IMG/VR virus record: IMGVR_UViG_3300009177_000720
DNA from: a virus
Strand: one strand, 5' to 3'
Length of the DNA: 64,000 nucleotides
The notes under the pieces are model-generated. The model saw only the letters and a list, made by a program, of their open reading frames with translations. It was not told the origin of the DNA and did no database searches. Position numbers and translations under genes: made by a program. Shown in pieces: positions 8,289 through 33,224 of the stretch; position 1 is the first letter of the stretch; each line of letters opens with the position of its first letter.

Positions 8289-9368
8289 TTAGTCGCTATC
8301 CTCAAAGGTTTCACCTGAACTACCATCGTGAATTGATGATGGTTTTTCATCAATTTCAGCATTCAAAATGTCATCAGATTGAGCATCATCCATTACAATA
8401 AGACCTTCTAAATCACCAAAATCTGGTCTTGGCTTTGGTCTGCTGGATGGTTGTCTGACAGTTGGAGGTGGCTCTTCGATGCCCTCTTCCATCATTTTAT
8501 GAGCCTTCCATTTCTTGTAAAATTCATCAAAAGATTTTGGTTGAGGAACGTCAACATTATTATCATCAGCCATATTGAATTCAGTGCCGTGATGCTTAAG
8601 GTTTTCCACCATTTTCTCTGGCGTCAATCCCTTAGTATGCCAATCACTCACTGAAAGCGGATTCTTTGGCTTATGTGGCTTTCCTCTAACATCATTATCA
8701 TCAAGCCCTAATTCTTGAGCAATGCTCTTGAAAACTAATTCATCTGGACTTGGCTTATCATCTTGCTTTGGTTGCTTGAGAAGACTTTGCATCTCAATTT
8801 CTTGACCGGGTTGAACTCCGACTGGACCAGGGTTAGCCATCCATTGAGAAACATTTTGTTGAAAATTTTCAGATTCGGATGGTCTATTCGGATCAATTGG
8901 AGCCATTGGATTCTCGATCCATGACATGAATCTCTGAGGAGAGCCCTCTGGATTCATTAATTCGGCAGCTTCTTCTTCACTCATAAGATTATGTCTACCA
9001 ATGAAAGAAGCAATTTCTTTATCAGTATATCCTAATCTTCTAAATGCAGTATTTACTCTAGCTTTAGAAAAAGCATCACCCTTACCTAATCCTTTTAGAT
9101 CGGCTTGGGTTACACCATTTTCCATCAATGATTGCATTGATGGCATCATCTTTACTTTAGTATCATGCTGAGCGGCAATTTTAGATAAAATCTGAAGAAC
9201 TTGTTCTGCCTTAGCAGTCATGCCAGCCTCTTCAAAAATTTGAGCCGCAGAATGAAGATACTCCACTGCCTGAACAAGGCTATTCATGCCTTGCTTTTTT
9301 TCATGAGAGTGTAGCTCGCGCTGCATTCCATGGATTAGCTCATTTTCGAAAAGACTTTTTTTGATCAT
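8289..9368 (-). CDS. Hypothetical head-region protein with N-terminal helical-hairpin module
   Basis: First 65 aa are clearly paralogous to the whole 9380..9607 protein; acidic Pro-rich remainder. Confidence 0.65.
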   Translation of the reverse strand: MIKKSLFENELIHGMQRELHSHEKKQGMNSLVQAVEYLHSAAQIFEEAGMTAKAEQVLQILSKIAAQHDTKVKMMPSMQSLMENGVTQADLKGLGKGDAFSKARVNTAFRRLGYTDKEIASFIGRHNLMSEEEAAELMNPEGSPQRFMSWIENPMAPIDPNRPSESENFQQNVSQWMANPGPVGVQPGQEIEMQSLLKQPKQDDKPSPDELVFKSIAQELGLDDNDVRGKPHKPKNPLSVSDWHTKGLTPEKMVENLKHHGTEFNMADDNNVDVPQPKSFDEFYKKWKAHKMMEEGIEEPPPTVRQPSSRPKPRPDFGDLEGLIVMDDAQSDDILNAEIDEKPSSIHDGSSGETFEDSD

Positions 9369-10382: not shown

Positions 10383-13300
10383 TTAGAACATTCTCTTGGA
10401 AGTCTTAGCAAGTGCTGCGGACAATTGAGACCAATCATCTTCTGCTGAGACAGCAGTATTGATTTCACCAGAACCAATTACGCCAACTTGTGGTAGACGA
10501 CCGGCAGTTCTACGTAGAGGTTGATGCTTTGCAACTACTCTCTTAAGAGTTTCGAAGTTTGCTTCGTTGAAGCTCATTAGCTCATCAACGTGAGCGGAGA
10601 TAACATTTCTGTCATTAGCAACTAAGCCACGGTCAACCATTTCATAGGTCATCTCGTAAGCTCTGGCCATCTTGACCTTGAACTTGTTAAGTTCTTCTTC
10701 AAGTTGAGCCTTAACGTGCTCCTTGACTAGTTCGCTTGCGAACTCAGATCCACCGTCTACTTGACCGTAGAACTTCTTGTAGTAAGAAACTGCATCCTTA
10801 TCCAAACCTTCAGCTACTAGAGCGTCCAAATCGGATGGGTCAAGCTTTCCTTCAGAAACTAGTCTGTGGATTGCTTCTGCTTCCTTACGAACCTTAGGTG
10901 GAGCCTTTGCAAGTTCCATCATAGCCTGGTTGACTTCTGGTAAGGTTTCGACCTTTCCTAGATTATCAGATGGCTTTACATCAAGTTCAGTCTGGCCATC
11001 AGCAAGCTTATCGGCTGCATCAAGCATGTCGCTAAACTTAGCGTGAGACATATCTTGAATTTCACCGTCATCTTGCTTGCCTAGTGCATCGGCAGCTAGC
11101 TTGGCACGAAGTGCGGCACGACCTTCTCTGGAATCAAAGGAAGCCTGAACAGTTACTTCGGTACCTGGCTTGACATCTAGACCCTTCTTCAACTCTTCTG
11201 GAGTTGCCATTAGGTCATTTGCGTCATCAACGGCCATGCCAGTCATTTCAGCTAATTCATCATGTGCTTCGCCCATGTGATCATTATCATCATCAGCCAT
11301 TAATTCCTTGACAGCATCCAAATCGGAGTTGGTGTCAGAAATCATGGCCATCAAGTCATCGCCATTGTTGGCGTCTAGTTCGCCTGTCATATTCTCTCCT
11401 TCAGCTAATGCTTCAAGTTCTGCTTCAATTTCTGCGCGCTTGACAATAGCTTTGGTTCCACGAGCATATTTGACGAAAGCGGTCATCAATTTGAATCCAT
11501 CTGCTACGGCAGACTTGGCTTCATTTAGCGCATCTTCAACAATAGTACCAACAAACTCTTGGTTAGAGTTAGTTACAGCGCCCTTGTCGTAAAGACCAGA
11601 GATCATGTCAAGCTCTTGTGCATGGTCATTTAGGTTAGCAACTGCTTCCTTCATGGCATGGGTAAGTGCGCCATTAAGTTCTTTTCTCAATCCGTTTAAG
11701 GTTGAGGTGCTAAAGGATGCTGCTGCGCCCATTTCTGGAGCAGAAGCGCCTTCCATCTCGCCCATTTCGGCTTGTTCACCAGTTAATGCTCTAACAGCTT
11801 CAACAAGGTCTGAACTTAGGTCTCTAACTTTTTCTGCCAAATCAGCAGCGGCTGCCTTTGGATCACCAGACTTGCCAGTGTCTTCGGCTGGAGGTGCACC
11901 TGCATCAGGAGCTGGTGCAGAAGAATCGGCTGGAGGTGGAGCACCTGCGTCAGCGGCTGGAGGTGGAGGAGCAGCCTGTGCACTCTTTACAAGTGCGGCT
12001 ACCTTCTCAACTCCACTAGTCTTTACCTTCTCAAGTAAGCTAGTTCCAAATTCCTTAGTAGCGATACTTCCGTATAGCTTGCTTGGACGACCACCAGATA
12101 GATCATTAACAGAGGCGGTTAGAATAAGTTTGTCACCACGGTAAACTTCCCAAGCACTGTCGCCTAGGTTACGGGTACCATCTTCATTGGTAGCGTAAAC
12201 GAACTTGGCACTTAATGCGGAAGCTCTACGTAGCATTTCCTTACGCTTTAACTCATCAGAGGTTTCAGCGGATTGTGGGGATGGGTGCATACCATCGACT
12301 GGGCCAACACCTGGGAATGGCTTTTGACCAACCATGTGCTTGTCGTCTCTCTCACGAAGGACGTACTCAAGCTTGTCAACTGGATACTTTGGCTTGCCTG
12401 GAGTTGGAGTTCCTGGGTTGTTGCCATCACCGTTTTGGAAGTAAGCAGTCTTGTTTTCAAGAGCTTGCTTAGCAAGGTTCACGATTGCAGAACGGCGAGC
12501 AGCTCTCTCTTCGGATTCAGCACGAGCAAGCATCTTCTTACGTTGTAGTTCGTCAGAAGGGTCGGCGGAATCTGGAGATGGGTGCATACCATCTACGGAG
12601 CCAACTTCTGGAAATGGGGATTGACCCACCATTTGCTTATCCTCTTTTTCACGAAGTTGCTCGTTGAGAGGATCTTTTGGATACTTGGCTTGACCTGGGG
12701 TAGGCTCGTTTACGCCACCAGCGCCTTGATAATAACCCTGCTTATTAATATTTGTACCTGACATATTTTCCTCTTGTTTGTTTGTAGAAGTGTTTGCTAA
12801 CTTATCCAAGCTTTCTTTCATTTGGCTCAACTTGGTCTCGATGGCCGTTGTGACCTCTCGAAGTTCAGCGATAGGGTCCACCCCTACTTCAGCGGTCGCG
12901 TATCTTGCATGTGGGGGAGCCAATCCAGAATCAGTACTTGGAATTTCCTCCAAGCCTTGATCCGATGCCAAATCATTAGTATCTTTTTCAGAAATTTTAG
13001 CAGAGGCATTAATCTCGCTTAATTTCGCAAAAGCTTTATCAACGTCTTCCTTGAACTTGGCAAGGTCGGTTGAGTTTACTGTAAATTGTGCACTGCCTCC
13101 ACCTTCATGACCTTTAGGATCATTAACAGTTAAAGTGGCGGAGAATGATAAATCTGCTATTCTGTTAAGCTCTTCTTGCTTACTCTCGACATAGCTGTTT
13201 AGTGTATTTGCAGCAGCAATAATATGTTTAATATTAGCTTTTGGATCTGCACCATTTACAACAATGGATAATTCAATTGGGTTTAAATCTACGTTAATTT

Positions 13301-19642: not shown

Positions 19643-21514
19643 TTAGGTTGGAGGTGGAGGAGGGGCTCCGCCTGCTGGTGGGCCGCCTTCCGGTGGTGGA
19701 GGAGGTGGTGGGGGCGCTCCGCCGCCACCGCCTGGAGGAGGTGCTCCTAAATCTAATCCTGGTAATCCGCCGCCTGGAGGAGGTGGTCCGCCGCCTGGAG
19801 CTTCTCCTGGTAATGGACCTTCACCACCACCTGGTTGACCTGGCTGTCCTTCTGGCTCTGGAATTTCATCTTCCTCATCCAAAGAACGAAGAGCATTCAA
19901 ATCCATGGCCTCAAGAGCAGCCTTTTCTTTCTTATTAATAGCAATTTGAATTGCTTCTTTGCGCATTTTACGGACTTCGTCTTCAAATTCTAATCCAAGA
20001 GAACGATACAAAGTATGCAAAGAGGCTCTTTTAGCTGCGTCTTCACCCTGGGTCAAAGTCACAAGACCGTTGATATAATCGCCAGCATCAAACAATGACA
20101 TGTGGTTCCAATCAATATCTGGAACGATCAATTGCTTTTCTCCACCCGAATAGTCGTAAAATCCTTGAATCTTAGAGATTGGGGCAAAAATCTTTCTTTT
20201 AAGCCAGGTTGACATCATGTTACGGAATTGCATGTAACGCTGTCTCAAAACGTCAAGAGCCACACCACCGTTCGCATAAGTAGTATCAGCACCCCCGTCC
20301 ATAAGAACAGGTGGAACTTGTAAGCCCACATAAATTTCTTTAATGATTTGAGTAATGTCACCAGAAATGTCATAGATGCCTTGGCCATATCCAACACGCT
20401 CAACAGCTACGCCGGCATGGGTAAAGATCTTAAAATCTTTATCATATTGAGCTTCCTCGAAAACGTTTCTCCAGGCTTCCAAGTCAGCGAAAGTTGGATG
20501 CAATCCATCAGGACCATCCGTACCAACCTTGACCAAAGTAAGCGGATTAATCATGTTGTCTGCTTGTGCGTACTTCGATTCACGCAACTTGTCGAAAAGC
20601 ATCAACTGACGGAAAATACAGACTGGCAGACCGGTTCCACGAATTTCGTAAGGGCTAATTCTACGGGCCAAATGAGAAACATGGAAATTGTCAAGCGGGA
20701 TATTTTCGCCACGCTTAACAGAATCAATGATGTGATTGTTGAGTTGCTTGCGTTGTTCAATATCAGTTGGTCTATTGGAGAAAACAATCTTCTTCAAGTT
20801 TTCGTCAGGACGTAACATGATGATTGGTTCGTTGGCAACAACAGTACGCTTAACAATCATGTAGTCTGGGTTTTGAATAAGAATCCTGCTCCATTTACCA
20901 CGGCTTTCATCAAGCTCAGCATAAACGAATGATTCACCAAGAAGCCAATACTCTTGGGCAATTTGGACACAAATATTCATCAAATCAATTTCTTCAATCA
21001 TGTCATTGAAGAATTTTTCGATGTCTTTGTTAGGACATTTGATATTTAATTTGCTAATTGGGTAAGTACTGTGTAAGTTAATTGCGTTGTGAACGAAAGG
21101 GTTCAAAGCATAAAAACTACGGCACCAAGCGTTGATAGTAGCTCTATCACGTGGAAGGTTAAGGTTGGAATTTAACCAAAGAGGAGAATAAACTTCTGGT
21201 GTCTGCTTGACGGTATCGCCACTGCCACCACGAAAATTACCACCGCCACCACTGCTAACGACTTGAGCAAATTTATGAACACCGACAGAAGAAACTACGC
21301 GACCATTAGCGGTAGCAGCATTCTCTTTGTTGGAAGGTCCAGAGCCGTCTCTGAATAATCCTTCTTCTACTTCACCGGCAATACCCTGCCTTCTAATATC
21401 TGACACACTACGAGACATTAGAGAGCTAACTTGTGGTAAAGTCGATCTATTTCCCAAGTATTGTTCAGAGTTGGAGGGTCCTACCCATGTTTTCTGAGTC
21501 TTATTGATAGCCAT
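19643..21514 (-). CDS. Portal protein
   Basis: Adjacent to terminase; WCRSFYALNPFVHNAINLHSTYP, YWLLGESFVY, HLARRISPYEIRGTG, GLQVPPVLM pattern of phage portals; Pro/Gly tail. Confidence 0.8.
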   Translation of the reverse strand: MAINKTQKTWVGPSNSEQYLGNRSTLPQVSSLMSRSVSDIRRQGIAGEVEEGLFRDGSGPSNKENAATANGRVVSSVGVHKFAQVVSSGGGGNFRGGSGDTVKQTPEVYSPLWLNSNLNLPRDRATINAWCRSFYALNPFVHNAINLHSTYPISKLNIKCPNKDIEKFFNDMIEEIDLMNICVQIAQEYWLLGESFVYAELDESRGKWSRILIQNPDYMIVKRTVVANEPIIMLRPDENLKKIVFSNRPTDIEQRKQLNNHIIDSVKRGENIPLDNFHVSHLARRISPYEIRGTGLPVCIFRQLMLFDKLRESKYAQADNMINPLTLVKVGTDGPDGLHPTFADLEAWRNVFEEAQYDKDFKIFTHAGVAVERVGYGQGIYDISGDITQIIKEIYVGLQVPPVLMDGGADTTYANGGVALDVLRQRYMQFRNMMSTWLKRKIFAPISKIQGFYDYSGGEKQLIVPDIDWNHMSLFDAGDYINGLVTLTQGEDAAKRASLHTLYRSLGLEFEDEVRKMRKEAIQIAINKKEKAALEAMDLNALRSLDEEDEIPEPEGQPGQPGGGEGPLPGEAPGGGPPPPGGGLPGLDLGAPPPGGGGGAPPPPPPPPEGGPPAGGAPPPPPT

Positions 21515-21591: not shown

Positions 21592-23484
21592 TTAAAACTT
21601 ACGAGGGATAAAGGCGGTCGTAACCAGTGGTTTATTACGTTGTGCGAAACTCTGCTGCTGAAGAATTGGATTATTATTAGTGAAACCCCTTGTAATGATG
21701 AACTTATATGCCAAATAGGCATTCAATAAAGCCATAAAACCGTCGTTAGGGGTACTACCCTTGACATAATGAATGGTTGGGTCAGCTCCCATCCTAGAAA
21801 TGGATGGCTTAATTTCCATGCTACAACAATGGTCAATCAGCCAAGCAACCTTTTCATAATCTCCAAAAGGAAATTTAATCATTCCCTTTTTCATTTGATC
21901 ATATAGCTCACCAATGTAAAAGTCTCTTTCAAAAACTAATTCTTTAGGAAAAGCATCCGCTGAGAACTTAATATGATCATTAACCTTATTATGAGCGCGG
22001 GAAACTAAATACTTATCGCCATAAATATTATGCAACATTGCAGAGAAGTCATTAGAATAACCAATGTCTCCAATTGCTAATTGAACACTGTATTGTCGCA
22101 TTATTTGATCAATAAGACCCTTTTTGCTTTCCATGTCATTTCTTTTGAACTTGGTAGCAAACTCAATATTTAATAAATTTGGTCCTTTGGCAGATAAGAC
22201 TACGGCCGTACTATAAGACTGTCCTGCCGCTCGTATCTTATCCGGGTTCGCTAATTGCTCTAAGTCTGCCCTAGCACCATAGTCGATTCCTAGTACCACT
22301 ATTTGCGGATTAATACTATTTCTTACTGGAACAATACGGGCCGCAAACTTCCTGTCGTCTCTGCAAAATTCTTTAATTTCTTCTGGAGTAATAGGGCTAG
22401 AATCACCTTGGAAAAATTCTCCCAAGACTTCGTTCATGAATACACGCTCGGTGTTGATTGGATGTTTACCAGGCATTTCATTATCAATGTCCTCTCTGGT
22501 AAACATTGGCATGTAAAGCTGATTAATATGAAAACCAACCATCTGGCAATCTTCATCATCTGGATCTTTAAGAGCGACCCACTTGCCACGTTCGGCGGCC
22601 TCTAGTTTGTTTTGTTCGTGTCCGCAGTGAGGGCACTTGACAATGAATCCGTGAATCCAAATCTTCTTCCAATCATCTGATCCTGGAGTATAAAGTGGGA
22701 AATGTTTATCACAACCCTCACAACCAAGATAATAGTATTGTTGGGAAGAAGTCTGCCACATCTTGTGAAAGTCAGATCCCTTGCGTCTTGGAGTTCCAAA
22801 ATAAACTTGTACTCCCTTGGATGGTCTACCATACTTGGCAGTGGTTAGAATCTTTAATGCGTTTCCAATGGCTTGACCGGTGGTCTTCTGAACTTCGTCA
22901 AAGAAAAGAATATCAGCAGTACGACCCATGATTCTGTCAGCGTCTAAACCAGTTGACTCAACCCATAAATGGTTTCCACCTTGGAACTGTTTAAAGTGCA
23001 AGGAGTCATTGGTTGCGGTTGATTGATCAAGCAAAGTCTGCATGTAAGACTTTGGTTTAGCGGCAGTCTTTTTATCCGTCTCTTGTCCCATCTGAACTGA
23101 TGATGAGATGATTTGGTTTAACTTGGTCTTAGAATAAGCAGCAGCCAATTCCAATTGAGGAAAGGCATGAATGATTCTAATTGGTGGCTTTTCACTTGTT
23201 CCAAATAATCCGCAGCCCATGAAATACATTTCAAGGGCGCTGGCCATGGTAGTGGCGCCGACCTGACGGCCTTTAACGATAATGAGCGGCTTAGAAGTTG
23301 GTTCTAGAGCTTTAATACCAATGTATCTGTAAATGTCGGCGAAAGGTTTATACCCATTGCCTCTTAACCTAAATGGCTTTCCATCAAGTGTTAAATACGT
23401 TTCGCAAAAATAAACTGGATCAAGATTCAGTAAATCTTTCTTTAATTTGTTAAATAGGTCTTTATCATTACTGCTAGCGGGCAC
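21592..23484 (-). CDS. Terminase large subunit (GpA-like)
   Basis: Walker A KGRQVGATT, Walker B ILFFDEVQ, GTP coupling motif, CEGC...CPHC zinc ribbon, GFHINQL, nuclease GIDYG and NDGFMA. Confidence 0.9.
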   Translation of the reverse strand: MPASSNDKDLFNKLKKDLLNLDPVYFCETYLTLDGKPFRLRGNGYKPFADIYRYIGIKALEPTSKPLIIVKGRQVGATTMASALEMYFMGCGLFGTSEKPPIRIIHAFPQLELAAAYSKTKLNQIISSSVQMGQETDKKTAAKPKSYMQTLLDQSTATNDSLHFKQFQGGNHLWVESTGLDADRIMGRTADILFFDEVQKTTGQAIGNALKILTTAKYGRPSKGVQVYFGTPRRKGSDFHKMWQTSSQQYYYLGCEGCDKHFPLYTPGSDDWKKIWIHGFIVKCPHCGHEQNKLEAAERGKWVALKDPDDEDCQMVGFHINQLYMPMFTREDIDNEMPGKHPINTERVFMNEVLGEFFQGDSSPITPEEIKEFCRDDRKFAARIVPVRNSINPQIVVLGIDYGARADLEQLANPDKIRAAGQSYSTAVVLSAKGPNLLNIEFATKFKRNDMESKKGLIDQIMRQYSVQLAIGDIGYSNDFSAMLHNIYGDKYLVSRAHNKVNDHIKFSADAFPKELVFERDFYIGELYDQMKKGMIKFPFGDYEKVAWLIDHCCSMEIKPSISRMGADPTIHYVKGSTPNDGFMALLNAYLAYKFIITRGFTNNNPILQQQSFAQRNKPLVTTAFIPRKF

Positions 23485-24145: not shown

Positions 24146-25075
24146 TTATCCCTTGTAGTTTGCTGCCCAGTCCATATTGTCGCTAGAAGCTACATCTACG
24201 TCTTGGTCTGGCATGAATCCTCTGTCTTGCTTGACAGCATAGCCCATGTCAGCTAGTAGTTGCATAACTTCAGCTTGCTCACGATCATTTAGTTTATAGA
24301 ACTTAACTTGTCTTGCGTACAAGTCTTCGATATCATGTCCGCCAGAAACCATGCCGTTAATACAGACTCTGGCAACTCTGGAAATCAAAAGAGGAACAGT
24401 AACGAACACACCTTGAACGCCAGTAATCTTCTGAGCTTCTTTAACTAGTCCTTCAGAGAATTCTGCCTTCTTCTTGCGGCTCTTTTTCTTGCTGCTCTTA
24501 ACTTTATCAAGACGGTCATGCAAGCGCTCAATACCGTTATCAATGATGGAACGAACTTTTTCAATTTGATTGGCATCTAACTCACCATCGATGTCATTTC
24601 TCATGGCCTTGGAAACTTCGTTGTCTAATCTTTCAAGATAAGCAACTGCTCTCTCAAGTCCTGCGGTGTCATAACCAGAGTGCTTTGGAACGTCATCACA
24701 ACGCTCTTTAACCCATGCAATAAATCCGGTTGGACCACGCTTGGACCAATCCCATTTTTCATTCTTAGCGGCCTTAGCTGGGTCTTCATCCATGGCCTTG
24801 CTTTTATCTTCTTCAGGTTCAGATACTTCAAGAACAGGCTCTGGGTCTTCGGTTCCTGGAGGGGCGCCTGGAAGATCCATTACAATTTCTAATTCTACTG
24901 GGTGATCGGTAACTTCTACTGGAGAAAAGTCTTCTTCGTGGTGGTGATGACCGCCATGTTCTTCTGGCGAATCAACTACTTCCAAGGGGACCAATTCCAT
25001 TCCGCCACCACCCATTGGGGCGCCCATAGAAGGGTCGACAACTATTAGTTCTTGTGCTGTTGACTGTAATGACAT
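24146..25075 (-). CDS. Hypothetical head-region protein
   Basis: 309 aa; acidic/His N-terminus; LVKEAQ; GAGGT RBS. Confidence 0.6.
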   Translation of the reverse strand: MSLQSTAQELIVVDPSMGAPMGGGGMELVPLEVVDSPEEHGGHHHHEEDFSPVEVTDHPVELEIVMDLPGAPPGTEDPEPVLEVSEPEEDKSKAMDEDPAKAAKNEKWDWSKRGPTGFIAWVKERCDDVPKHSGYDTAGLERAVAYLERLDNEVSKAMRNDIDGELDANQIEKVRSIIDNGIERLHDRLDKVKSSKKKSRKKKAEFSEGLVKEAQKITGVQGVFVTVPLLISRVARVCINGMVSGGHDIEDLYARQVKFYKLNDREQAEVMQLLADMGYAVKQDRGFMPDQDVDVASSDNMDWAANYKG

Positions 25076-25138: not shown

Positions 25139-26698
25139 TTAAATATTCCATTTATCTTCATAGATGAGACTTTCCGGTCCCAAAGTTCCATAATCTGGAT
25201 TCATTTCATCAATTATGGTATCTTCTTCTTCCGAATGGTTAAACCCATCTGGCAAGCCGTATAAATCTGAATCTTGTTCATGAGATAAGTATTTATCCAT
25301 TATTTGGCTTAATAATTCTTCATCTACCGAATCACCATCTTCCTCATAGTCGCGGCCATAATTTAAGGTAGTTGGTGGTTTACCCTCAAAGTCAGGGTAG
25401 AATAGGGGAGGCTCGCCTCCACCAATTTCGGTGGCGTGCATAAAACTGGAGTTATCTCCTAGATTTGGGAATCCAGGGAAAGTACTCATATCACCAGGTT
25501 CACCTTCAGGTCCAAGCATAAAAAGCCTCTGAAAAGAAGCGTCGTCATGCTCAGGAGGAAGGGTCTCAATTTCATCATCTATTGGAAAATCAATAGCAGT
25601 TTTCATAATTTGCGAAATTAATTCGGCACGTGCTTTGATTTGAGGATTTTTCTTGGTAATTTCCCCACTGTCCTCAATCCAGGAATCATCAGCCTTGTAC
25701 TTGTCCTTCATCTTCTTGCGCTTGGCCTTTAGAAATTCAGAGACGCTTTTATACTTTTCCATGGAGTGCCAACCGGCTCCGGGGCCGATGTGCTCGAATC
25801 CAGGGATGTCGTAAAGGTCGTAATTACGATAGAAGGGTTCCTTGAAGCGCGTTTGATTGACAATGGCTGGGTCAGACTTGTATTTTTTCTTTTTAGGAGC
25901 TGGCTCATTAACACCACCCCCGCCTTGGAAATAAGCCTGCTTTGGCATCCCCTTAGCTTTCATATAGTATGGTTGAACTACTTCGGTAATTGGAATCTCT
26001 TCCCATAAATTCATTTTGCTAATATAGAAAGCGGCCTTATCAGCATCACGATTAAATGCTTCATTCAATTTTTCAGTCATTGCTTTTTCACTAGCAATTT
26101 TAACTGAAGATGGATTTCTAGTAACGTAATCAATGATACTTTGATCAATATCAAAATCTAATTTGGAAGCTAAATAAATAGCTCTAATTACTCTATTCTT
26201 GTTAGAAGTTAAAGTAATTTCTGGAGACAAACAAGTTTTGATTTTTCTTTCCTTAATATCTTGAAAGCCTTTGTGAGTTGGATCTATTAGATTTTTAAGA
26301 TCTAAAGACAATAGTAGAGCGTTACAGGTAAAATCCCTGCTAAACATCTCTTTTTGCATCTCAGTTGGGCGAGCAATTCCTTGCTTAGCAAGAATGGCAT
26401 CAATATTTGGTACATTAAAATTGGAAGAAAAGTCCATTTTAAATGAACCAATGTAAATGGAACTATGACCATCATCATGATCTCTTCTAGTTACATTGTA
26501 TTTTTTGCCTAAAATAGTGCCGAATTCTGAAGATAAATATCCAACTGTCTTGTCACCAGTTGTAATGTCTAAATCCGAAATATTCTCCAAGTGCTTGAGA
26601 TAGCGATCTCTAGGCGTACCACCGCAGATATAGGCTTCAGATGAGCCTATTTTCTTTTGGGTATCCTGCATTTGTTGGAGAAGTTCTCGAAGTTTCAT
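25139..26698 (-). CDS. Class II (CCA-adding/poly(A) polymerase family) nucleotidyltransferase with long acidic C-terminal extension
   Basis: YICGGTPRD, DLDITT (catalytic DxD), SRDFTCNAL, IDPTHKGFQDI, NRVIRAI; extension begins with a scaffold-like peptide. Confidence 0.85.
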   Translation of the reverse strand: MKLRELLQQMQDTQKKIGSSEAYICGGTPRDRYLKHLENISDLDITTGDKTVGYLSSEFGTILGKKYNVTRRDHDDGHSSIYIGSFKMDFSSNFNVPNIDAILAKQGIARPTEMQKEMFSRDFTCNALLLSLDLKNLIDPTHKGFQDIKERKIKTCLSPEITLTSNKNRVIRAIYLASKLDFDIDQSIIDYVTRNPSSVKIASEKAMTEKLNEAFNRDADKAAFYISKMNLWEEIPITEVVQPYYMKAKGMPKQAYFQGGGGVNEPAPKKKKYKSDPAIVNQTRFKEPFYRNYDLYDIPGFEHIGPGAGWHSMEKYKSVSEFLKAKRKKMKDKYKADDSWIEDSGEITKKNPQIKARAELISQIMKTAIDFPIDDEIETLPPEHDDASFQRLFMLGPEGEPGDMSTFPGFPNLGDNSSFMHATEIGGGEPPLFYPDFEGKPPTTLNYGRDYEEDGDSVDEELLSQIMDKYLSHEQDSDLYGLPDGFNHSEEEDTIIDEMNPDYGTLGPESLIYEDKWNI

Positions 26699-26706
26699 TC
26701 ATTTGT

Positions 26707-28536
26707 TTAGGCTGGAGGTGGTGGAGCTTTCGGAGGGGCTGCTACTGGTGGAGGAGCGGCTGGGGCACCTAAGTCTTCTTCAATTTCAACTTCTGGTGTC
26801 TCTTTAGCATTACCGGCTAATTCAGCAGCTTCCTGATCTTTTCTCATCTGCTTACGAGCCTTTTCTTTTTCTTCATCAGATTGTAGCTTGTTTTTAATAC
26901 CAGCTACTTCTGGACTCTCGGGTACGTTACCGCCCTTAAGATCAACGTCCTTAGTGGATAGAGCACCACGTAGTTTTGAAAGAATATCTTCTACACGGCT
27001 AGAGATATAGTTGTTGGATTCTAGAGCTTTGTTTTGAGCTTCAGAAAGAGATGGGAAATAAGATGCTAATCCCTTGCTGTCTAACATCATATCTACAAGA
27101 GCTAGTCTTCTAGGAATTTCTCTAACTTTAAATACCTTAGCCAAGTCTTCTAACTCAGCTACGATATCGGAGATGGAAACATTAGCCATCATAGAGTCCA
27201 TCTTAGCGTTAAAGTCGCCACCACCCGTATCCGTCTTTTCACCTTCTGGTGGGGCGGTAGGGGCAGCAATTTCATCTTCTGTTACTTCAATAGGCTCTTC
27301 TGCAACCTCTGGAGCGGCAGGCTCTTCAGCGGCAGGTGGGGCCACTGGTGCTGGATTTAGTGGAGCTGGTGCAGGAGTAGTCGTCATTGGTTCAGCAGCC
27401 TGAGCCTCTGTAACTAGTAACTCATCATCCGCTTCGTTAACCTCAAGAGAATCTTCAACCTCTAAATCATCTTCTACCTTGCTGTCATCGCTTGGAGAGA
27501 AGTTTACCTTTTCCAATCCCTTTAGGAATTTTTCAATTCCAGGAGGCGCACTCTTCTCGCTTTGAGGCATGGTAACATTTCCATCTGGTTGAGCTGGGGT
27601 ACCAGCACCGCCTGATGGGACGCCTGGATTTCCGGCCCCGGTTGGATCTGGTGGTGGCGTTGGAGTTGGAGCTTGGGCTACAGAATATAGAACGCCAGCA
27701 GCTTTAGTAAAACCTTGTTTGATTAAAACATTAGCCTGACGGATAATCATATCTTCATACAATCTAGTAGAAGAACTAATCTTATTTACCATTTGAATTT
27801 TCTTCTTAAGTTGATAAATAGATTCTAATAGACTTTCAAATTCTTTTCCTGCGAATAAGTGGCCGTCTTTAGAACGAAGCAATTTTTCGGCAGAGTCTAA
27901 ACGACCAATAATTTTGTTTCTTTGCTTCTCAATGATGTCTCTTCTTTCAGACTCATCAGTAGCGCGACTCTTGGCAAAATCGATATCTGCTCCGGAAACT
28001 TCAGGGGCAGGGGCAGGCGACTTATCTGCATCGATAGGTAGGGCATATCCTGGAAGTTCTGGATTTTGGTACCACTTTTTTGGACCAGACTCCTCGAACC
28101 ATAGTTGTGCAAATTTATACTTCATATGATCTCCCGCCTCATAGAATTTAACCCAGTTAAGAAAATCAAAAGTTTCCATGACATTCCAACCAGAAGTTAC
28201 TCTGCGAATAGCTGTTACTCTGTTTTCGCCAGACTTTTCTTTACGGTAGATATCACTAATGGCCTGTAACCACTTCTGGGTGTCATGCTGTCCAGGGACG
28301 TGCATGTACACCTCTGTGTTTGGATAAGCCTTTCTTTTGCTAAAATCCAATCGTGGAATTGATTCAGGATCAAACTTTCCATAATCAATACCATATTGAT
28401 CAAAAAATTCCATTAACTTTTCAAGTTTAGGCTGCATCTCCTCCGTCACCTCTAATTCTTTATCAGAATAAGGGCGCTTGGCCAAATCTGGTTTTGGCGG
28501 ATCCTGTAGTTTTGAAAAGCGATTGATGGAACTCAT
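26707..28536 (-). CDS. Hypothetical head-region protein
   Basis: 609 aa; two hairpin-like motifs; YKFAQ, YSVAQ and LVTEAQ each precede Pro/Glu-rich linkers. Confidence 0.6.
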   Translation of the reverse strand: MSSINRFSKLQDPPKPDLAKRPYSDKELEVTEEMQPKLEKLMEFFDQYGIDYGKFDPESIPRLDFSKRKAYPNTEVYMHVPGQHDTQKWLQAISDIYRKEKSGENRVTAIRRVTSGWNVMETFDFLNWVKFYEAGDHMKYKFAQLWFEESGPKKWYQNPELPGYALPIDADKSPAPAPEVSGADIDFAKSRATDESERRDIIEKQRNKIIGRLDSAEKLLRSKDGHLFAGKEFESLLESIYQLKKKIQMVNKISSSTRLYEDMIIRQANVLIKQGFTKAAGVLYSVAQAPTPTPPPDPTGAGNPGVPSGGAGTPAQPDGNVTMPQSEKSAPPGIEKFLKGLEKVNFSPSDDSKVEDDLEVEDSLEVNEADDELLVTEAQAAEPMTTTPAPAPLNPAPVAPPAAEEPAAPEVAEEPIEVTEDEIAAPTAPPEGEKTDTGGGDFNAKMDSMMANVSISDIVAELEDLAKVFKVREIPRRLALVDMMLDSKGLASYFPSLSEAQNKALESNNYISSRVEDILSKLRGALSTKDVDLKGGNVPESPEVAGIKNKLQSDEEKEKARKQMRKDQEAAELAGNAKETPEVEIEEDLGAPAAPPPVAAPPKAPPPPA

Positions 28537-33181: not shown

Positions 33182-33224
33182 AAACAAAAATAAAGGGTGT
33201 ACCCTATTCAAAGGATACACCCTT
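33182..33224 (-). terminator. Intrinsic terminator separating replication and head regions
   Basis: AAGGGTGTA...TACACCCTT stem followed on the minus strand by TATTTTTGTTT. Confidence 0.75.

Follow-up and report, generated by a model that had tools for sequence, protein, structure and literature searches.

A short conserved peptide shared by the prohead protease-scaffold and a nucleotidyltransferase-linked tail protein of uncultured giant phages

In a 64,000-nucleotide stretch of viral DNA (IMG/VR record IMGVR_UViG_3300009177_000720; hereafter the window), a gene for a nucleotidyltransferase (NTase) and a gene for a prohead protease-scaffold fusion encode versions of the same 25-residue peptide. 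We found that this peptide is a conserved short linear motif that opens three disordered segments in a clade of uncultured giant phages: two lie in the protease-scaffold polyprotein and the third at the N terminus of an acidic, floppy tail protein. Within the head and packaging operon, the gene for the tail protein always either follows a gene for a minimal class II NTase directly or is joined to it. The best reading of these data, to which we assign a probability of about 0.5, is that the motif loads its bearer into the prohead and that the NTase is released there by a cut at K-x-A|Y. An initial annotation of the window, which had proposed recruitment of the enzyme into the prohead and its release at K-Q-A|Y, is thus partly supported.

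A peptide shared by two head genes

The NTase gene of the window (P0002; 25139..26698, minus strand, denoted (-) below) is an open reading frame (ORF) of 519 residues with a match to Pfam family PF01743, and it comprises an NTase body, the shared peptide, a basic segment and an acidic tail. The peptide spans residues 253-277 (25868..25942 (-)), where the initial annotation had placed it, and its consensus on the NTase side is K-x-A-Y-F-Q-G-G-G-G-V-N-E-P-x-P-x(3)-K-Y-x-x-D-P. The scaffold gene (P0001; 10383..13955 (-); 1,190 residues) encodes two copies, copy 1 at residues 405-429 (12669..12743 (-)) and copy 2 at residues 502-527 (12375..12452 (-)). A recount by hand gave the same 16 identities in 25 residues between the NTase peptide and copy 1 as first reported, and the distance to the scaffold copies, which start at 12743 and 12452, is 13.2 kb, in agreement with the 13 kb stated.

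BLASTP of the NTase protein against the scaffold gave E values of 3e-8 for copy 1 and 1e-3 for copy 2, and in an all-against-all BLASTP of the 70 minus-strand ORFs of the window this pair was the sole cross-protein match at E<0.01. A profile built from NTase sequences only recovered both copies in approximately 40 scaffold homologs (46-77% identity to P0001), with independent E values down to 2.5e-8. The robustly shared stretch is only about 27-30 residues long, and the NTase-only profile aligned to the scaffold over profile positions 2-28 only. The BLASTP alignment itself extended over 89 residues; we rejected the longer shared module that this might indicate, since hhalign of the downstream parts after removal of the peptide gave P 0.2, which is not significant; the basic stretch at residues 278-343 of the NTase ORF thus has no significant similarity to the scaffold. 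Of the 16 residues that are identical between the NTase peptide and scaffold copy 1, 9 are encoded by different codons, which argues that the peptide rather than the DNA has been kept by selection and that there was no recent copying. As judged from these sequence comparisons, the motif is real and under purifying selection. The initial annotation had described the peptide as copied from the scaffold, a claim that we do not retain, as nothing shows transfer from scaffold to NTase rather than in the opposite direction.

The peptide is predicted to be disordered in the NTase and scaffold alike, and in both it adjoins folded parts. In the scaffold the copies lie between helices and ahead of a small domain with a predicted local distance difference test (pLDDT) score of about 95. 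This is an alpha/beta domain (12000-12200, residues ~580-655 of P0001) located between copy 2 and the L-x-K-x-A-Q site described below. A VIA-align search with scaffold segment 380-665 against 48,161 chains returned no match with Z ≥5, only long-helix look-alikes.

To place the motif in a wider context, we compared it across relatives of the window. More than 300 NTase homologs were found, many on contigs of 200-510 kb, and the contigs that bear them are uncultured giant phages. The strict core K-x-[AGS]-Y-[FYW]-Q-[GN] is retained in 92 of the 110 homologs that are at least 380 residues long. All 36 aligned scaffold homologs have two copies of the peptide; K, Y, G, E, P, P and Y are each present in 36 of 36 sequences in copy 1, as are K, P, P, K and Y in copy 2. 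On the 14 contigs that carry both genes, the scaffold has two copies in every case and the peptide is found in the NTase gene, or in the gene after it, in 12. Such co-occurrence in both genes was the check proposed in the initial annotation, and the peptide passes it. A search of four near-complete relatives of 394-448 kb with the peptide profile matched only the scaffold and the NTase-adjacent gene. Among 1.84 billion cluster representatives, 180 clusters match the motif profile, and the best 150 of these, when sorted by our own motif and length rules, are nearly all of the scaffold type (two copies) or the tail type (one copy).

The peptide occurs in a short form (G-T-E-E-P) and a long form (G-G-G-G-V-N-E-P). 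We saw no co-variation of the two forms within genomes, and in G002 and G004 they are mixed between the NTase-side and scaffold copies. Two scaffolds appeared to stand alone and to start at the motif, of which P0211 is a contig-end truncation and P0145 may be real; neither was used as evidence. Separately, four small proteins of 128-179 residues (P0235, P0252, P0262 and P0264; locus L119) form a third class of motif bearers; each has a helix at the N terminus, a single peptide copy and the C terminus D-G-R-[YF]-K-K-K-K, and the contigs that encode them are short.

A minimal class II nucleotidyltransferase

Class II head and neck domains make up the NTase body (residues 1-250; 25949..26698 (-)). 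Residues 22-153 match the PolyA_pol head domain (PF01743) with 42.2 bits against a cut-off of 23. AlphaFold2 gave pLDDT above 90 for residues 1-250 only and below 50 at residues 255-261, which agrees with the initial description of the peptide as lying directly after the catalytic body. The top Foldseek matches were all class II enzymes (CCA-adding and A-adding), aligned over approximately 240 columns with an E value of 6e-10; these enzymes are 340-440 residues long, so the alignment spans the head and neck only, and the tRNA-binding body and tail domains are missing from the phage NTase. It has the same head and neck fold as class II tRNA nucleotidyltransferases (PDB 4wby, 1vfg, 6qy6 and 1miv), and the motif A carboxylates and the RDF-x-N of motif B are common to both. 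The phage enzyme differs from them in length, with about 250 residues and no body or tail domain compared with 370-440 residues in class II CCA-, CC- and A-adding enzymes and poly(A) polymerase, and in that its gene is located in a head operon and not beside tRNA genes.

The motif A residues G26, G27, R30, D31, D42 and D44, which make up GGxxRD and DxD, are invariant in 59 aligned homologs. Motif B (RRD) reads S-R-D-F-T-C-N, in which R-D is kept and the first R is lost, as in all but one of the homologs listed. At the position of motif D, the EDxxR template that reads CTP and ATP, the sequence is S-N-K-N-R, with only the arginine retained, and 71 of the 120 NTase-bearing proteins listed share the pattern T-[ST]-N-[KR]-N-R. 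Given the catalytic residues that are kept, the NTase is probably active. The altered template and the loss of the body and tail domains mean that family membership does not tell which nucleotide it adds or to which substrate; the label 'CCA-type' in the initial annotation is therefore correct for the fold and not for the functional subfamily. A role against tRNA-targeting defences, suggested at the same time, is speculation. In reviews of huge and jumbo phages, CCA-adding enzymes appear solely among the genes for translation or RNA repair (PMC7162821, PMC7824862).

One 448-kb relative encodes a second, canonical PF01743 enzyme (G003:C1:295333-295704; a frame of 425 residues, 134.5 bits) in addition to the minimal NTase of its head operon, which scores 46 bits; three other near-complete relatives have the minimal form only. 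The presence of a separate canonical enzyme in one relative hints that the head-operon NTase does something else.

Fused and split genes

Many relatives encode the NTase in a separate gene of 250-259 residues, the stop codon of which lies inside the first codons of an overlapping tail gene. A separate Shine-Dalgarno-like sequence and start codon serve this second gene, the product of which begins M-x-x-(N)-K-x-A-Y-F-Q-G. In about 30 of the representative clusters the tail protein stands alone, and the motif is at residues 3-11; the genes for these proteins begin 2-4 residues ahead of the lysine, so K-x-A is retained. These stand-alone, overlapping genes indicate that the peptide is the N terminus of a separate tail protein, and that the window gene is a fusion of two translationally coupled genes. 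The earlier statement that the enzyme carries the peptide thus applies to the fused gene of this window, and in split relatives the NTase is not covalently tagged. In a tree built from the NTase bodies, four changes between the fused and split states are required, at least two of which are forced by well-supported branches. We considered two other ways in which the two products might arise. A programmed +1 frameshift in split relatives was ruled out by the second ORFs, which have a Shine-Dalgarno-like sequence and an ATG, GTG or TTG start; and an internal start for a nested tail product in the fused gene is unsupported, as Met251 is not conserved and the Shine-Dalgarno-like AAGGGG abuts the ATG.

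The junction at which fusion or fission occurs lies exactly at the motif. In several relatives, other domains are inserted directly ahead of it: SET in P0265, DnaJ in P0206, DUF7919 in P0189 and two unknown domains in P0221 and P0228. P0249 has a PcfJ-like domain and approximately 900 residues in this place, and P0103 has a PcfJ-like domain together with the NTase. The occurrence of other domains at the junction is as expected of a removable passenger position. Where the neighbourhoods were readable (P0265, P0249 and P0221), the gene is still preceded by one for an NTase and followed by those for the terminase and portal, and the same holds for a distant form of 301 residues. The order of a gene of ~600 residues, NTase, tail, genes of ~310 and ~220 residues, terminase and portal is preserved down to approximately 50% identity, with an extra small gene after the ~220-residue gene in three of four contexts. 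We also noted two unusual junctions. Locus L011 (IMGVR_UViG_3300033066_001474) has approximately 580 bases between the NTase stop and the motif-bearing tail ORF (L011:5132-5710), and the original start (M-S-Q-N-K) now reads into unrelated sequence; this insertion may be a mobile element or an intron. In L120, an HNH-endonuclease-like C terminus precedes the tail gene.

Downstream of the peptide, the remainder of the basic module (residues 278-343; 25670..25867 (-)) is kept in NTase-linked tail proteins with a conservation of 0.60-0.71. Together, the peptide and this stretch (residues 251-343) are lysine-rich, with an isoelectric point (pI) of 9.44. Residues 344-519 (25142..25669 (-)) form the acidic tail seen in the initial annotation, with a pI of 4.05; it is mostly disordered, with pLDDT mostly below 50, and contains islands of conservation and, in most homologs, a near-invariant C-terminal Y-E-D-K-W-N-I. 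A complex prediction of residues 1-250 with residues 251-519, with alignments for both, scored 0.00 and gave no verdict. Tail proteins end in K-W-N-I, M-W-I or I-S-F, and scaffolds of other subclades end in L-G-W-K or I-W-N-K (P0145, P0167, P0195, P0205, P0251 and P0267). An aromatic C-terminal anchor may be a second feature that the predicted scaffold and tail proteins have in common.

A candidate prohead protease site

Residues 106-214 of P0001 match PHROG 18299, a head maturation protease, with an E value of 1e-14, and the C-terminal 531 residues are acidic (pI 4.5). In tblastn, P0001 matched phage G gp19 and annotated maturation proteases. By these matches, P0001 is classed as a prohead protease-scaffold fusion of the HK97/T4 gp21/assemblin-like type. 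In the head region (1-33 kb, minus strand), [LFI]-x-K-x-A-[QSA] was observed 16 times against 3.0 expected from shuffles (z 7.7), and L-V-K-x-A 8 times against 0.5; in the other half of the window, the former was observed once against 1.9 expected. Most copies in the head region are 10-60 residues from N termini. The enriched motif is probably the prohead protease site, and it would mark a dozen candidate processed head proteins. The scaffold itself has a canonical L-V-K-S-A-Q site at residues 655-660 (11976..11993 (-)), right after its small folded domain, which is conserved in homologs: K in 36 of 36, A in 23 and G in 12 at P1, and Q in 35 of 36.

The shared peptide opens with an invariant K, any residue, A or G, and then Y, with the same alternation between A and G. 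In copy 1 of the scaffold, P5 is I, M or L in 34 of 36 sequences. A cut after the A or G of K-x-[AG], which would be K-Q-A|Y in the window, is plausible on this comparison.

Proposed packaging of the enzyme and alternative explanations

In the reading that we prefer, the motif would be a scaffold-type assembly and processing signal by which its bearer joins the scaffold core as the prohead forms, and the K-x-[AG] before Y would be cut by the prohead protease. The fusion places the NTase body (residues 1-250) ahead of the motif, which would bring the enzyme into the prohead in cis and free it by a cut at A255|Y256. The freed NTase could remain in the head and pass into the cell along with the DNA. 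That the residues following the proposed cut are conserved suggests that they dock to a common partner, which could be the protease, the portal, a capsid protein or the scaffold. We infer prohead binding, cleavage, virion retention and injection, and likewise what the NTase adds to which substrate. More generally, upstream passengers would be carried in and freed in the same way, the minimal NTase here and SET, PcfJ-like and J domains elsewhere. It is a tentative possibility, and one that we would not favour at present, that the scaffold-derived peptide and the disordered acidic carrier are a general, evolvable cargo slot in which any domain before K-x-A|Y is packaged, cut free and injected.

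Several observations weigh against the preferred reading. The split type, in which the NTase has no motif, was found in 33 of the 57 IMG/VR loci sampled, and it looks basal when the tree is rooted at the midpoint. As the split state is both commoner and apparently basal, covalent tagging is a lineage feature that may be neutral. In the relatives G003 and G005, the scaffold has the peptide and the tail gene does not. The proposed cutting site also departs from the canonical ones: the NTase copies do not always have a hydrophobic residue at P5, and the peptide has Y at P1' where canonical sites have Q, S or A, so the K-Q-A|Y site as first annotated agrees with the L-x-K-x-A core at P3 (K) and P1 (A or G) and disagrees at P5 and P1'. 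The nearest cultured protease, phage G gp19 (34% identity over 203 residues), has no NTase nearby. Finally, we did not find the major capsid protein with PHROGs, Pfam or the ESM Atlas among ORF 8289..9368 and eight other ORFs of the head region.

We weighed three other explanations for the data. The most serious, although we regard it as unlikely, is that the tail protein is a head-assembly factor, an accessory that would go into and out of the prohead as scaffold does, whereas the NTase is only a translationally coupled, cytoplasmic late enzyme and not cargo. Fusions would then be tolerated accidents of a one-nucleotide change between overlapping genes. This would fit the split genes, which overlap the NTase stop, are each equipped with a Shine-Dalgarno sequence and start codon, and represent the commoner state; it would also fit the two to four or more changes of the fusion state and the absence of both the motif and an N-terminal leader from the split NTase. 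However, the fused clade is large and old (13 diverse rows in one clade of the tree), and more than 90 cluster representatives are fused, which indicates that fusion is not deleterious. The pairing of the NTase and tail genes is constant across deep divergence, which argues for a functional tie, and several other enzyme-like domains occupy the same junction.

Distinctly less probable is that the peptide and basic stretch serve the enzyme by binding nucleic acid or another factor in place of its lost domains, with the scaffold copies reflecting a common ligand such as DNA, RNA or a chaperone. The NTase does lack its tRNA-binding half, its module is lysine-rich with the pI of 9.44 given above, and one relative has a DnaJ-like domain at the junction. 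Yet the scaffold copies are not basic (repeat 1 has a pI of 5.5, and G-Q-x-K-Y-P replaces the lysine runs), the invariant residues K, Y, Q, G, E, P, P and Y do not form a basic patch, and the split NTase works without a covalently attached module. It is highly improbable that the match is due to chance or to low-complexity (Gly/Pro/Lys-rich) similarity with no common function: the peptide does contain a run of four glycines and a lysine run, but the statistics and conservation refute this explanation, and these runs do not include the invariant aromatic and proline positions.

Relation to known systems

The packaging proposed here resembles, and differs from, several known systems. The capsid targeting sequence (CTS) of phage T4 is an N-terminal leader of about ten residues that ends in L/I-x-E and is discarded, and its cargo is injected with the DNA. 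It is present on IPI-III and Alt and is removed by the gp21 prohead protease (PMC9026906, PMC9958956). As in T4, a short peptide common to scaffold-core proteins would send unrelated proteins, which in T4 include the enzyme Alt, into the prohead, and the prohead protease would cut at the tag, as we propose from the sequence. Unlike in T4, the motif is C-terminal to the enzyme, opens with K-x-[AG], is followed by a carrier of 260 residues and is common to the protease-scaffold itself. A CTS of the T4 type is not evident in the NTase, in which the catalytic motif begins at residue 26, no leader is present and the peptide is located at residues 253-277. In phiKZ, 201phi2-1 and SPN3US, propeptides of head proteins are cut by the prohead protease, and the ejection proteins include the virion RNA polymerase (PMC10052503). 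All SPN3US substrates except the protease itself lose N-terminal propeptides (PMC10052503). These phiKZ-like giant phages are similar to the phages studied here in having large capsids with many internal proteins, a recurrent protease motif and, as we propose, enzymes that are packaged and ejected; they differ in their cutting motif, and neither a class II NTase cargo nor a peptide shared with the scaffold has been described in them.

Herpesviruses have a protease-scaffold polyprotein (UL26/UL26.5) with release and maturation sites of the form V/L-x-A|S, and a Tyr/Pro-rich motif in their scaffold is needed for portal incorporation. The fusion of protease to scaffold, an alanine at P1 and a short Tyr/Pro-rich docking motif in a disordered scaffold are thus common features, although herpesviruses belong to another branch of their virus realm and the motif sequence is different. 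To our knowledge, no herpesvirus cargo enzyme bears the scaffold motif. Head proteins of the MuF/SPP1 gp7 type are fused to polymorphic toxin domains, with the conserved module N-terminal and folded and the variable part C-terminal. They likewise join a conserved head-incorporation module to variable enzyme domains, but in the phages studied here the order is reversed, with the variable part at the N terminus, and the carrier is disordered. The system proposed here stands apart from the known ones in the position and sequence of its tag, in the presence of that tag in the protease-scaffold, in its long disordered carrier and in the type of enzyme.

Enzymes delivered from the capsid help several phages to win the first minutes of infection, as do T4 Alt and IPI*, the virion RNA polymerases of N4 and phiKZ, and P1 Dar. 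If packaging of the NTase is correct, cargo of the largest known phages, all of which are uncultured, would be addressed by a new rule, through a linear motif that is shared with the scaffold and C-terminal to the cargo, and injected proteins could be predicted directly from sequence. An enzyme that modifies the 3' ends of RNA or other nucleic acids would join the candidate injected effectors, and the pair of peptide and protease could be used to load foreign proteins into capsids. With a general cargo slot, the phage would have ready-made enzymes at work on host RNA or proteins within the first seconds of infection. Alternatively, if the NTase is only a coupled neighbour of the tail gene, the head operon of a large phage clade would encode a conserved, unannotated assembly protein and a minimal NTase.

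Genomic setting of the window

The NTase gene lies among head genes, as the initial annotation had noted, with the large terminase two genes downstream (21592..23484 (-); PHROG 675, E 6e-59) and the portal protein three genes downstream (19643..21514 (-); PHROG 16240, E 2e-51), all on the same strand. We detected no strong terminator between the NTase/tail genes and the head genes. The only strong one found near this block on the minus strand is upstream of it, a terminator-like hairpin with a 13-bp stem and a T-run at 33193-33224 (-), just ahead of the NTase-terminase-portal-scaffold genes, and the late structural operon probably begins at this point. Megablast of 5 kb of the window against GenBank phages gave no match, and tblastn of the NTase gave just two weak matches, both in unannotated gut contigs.

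The NTase gene is flanked by genes for two low-complexity proteins with no family match, one of 309 residues (24146-25075 (-)) and one of 609 residues (26707-28536 (-)). In the former, the N-terminal 210 residues are very acidic and are followed by L-V-K-E-A-Q, which would make them a long candidate propeptide. Proline runs end both the 609-residue neighbour and the portal protein. In several relatives, the large terminase is 968-988 residues long and has intein or LAGLIDADG matches (L115:9315-12281 and L116:12638-15547); the terminase of this window has 630 residues and is intein-free.

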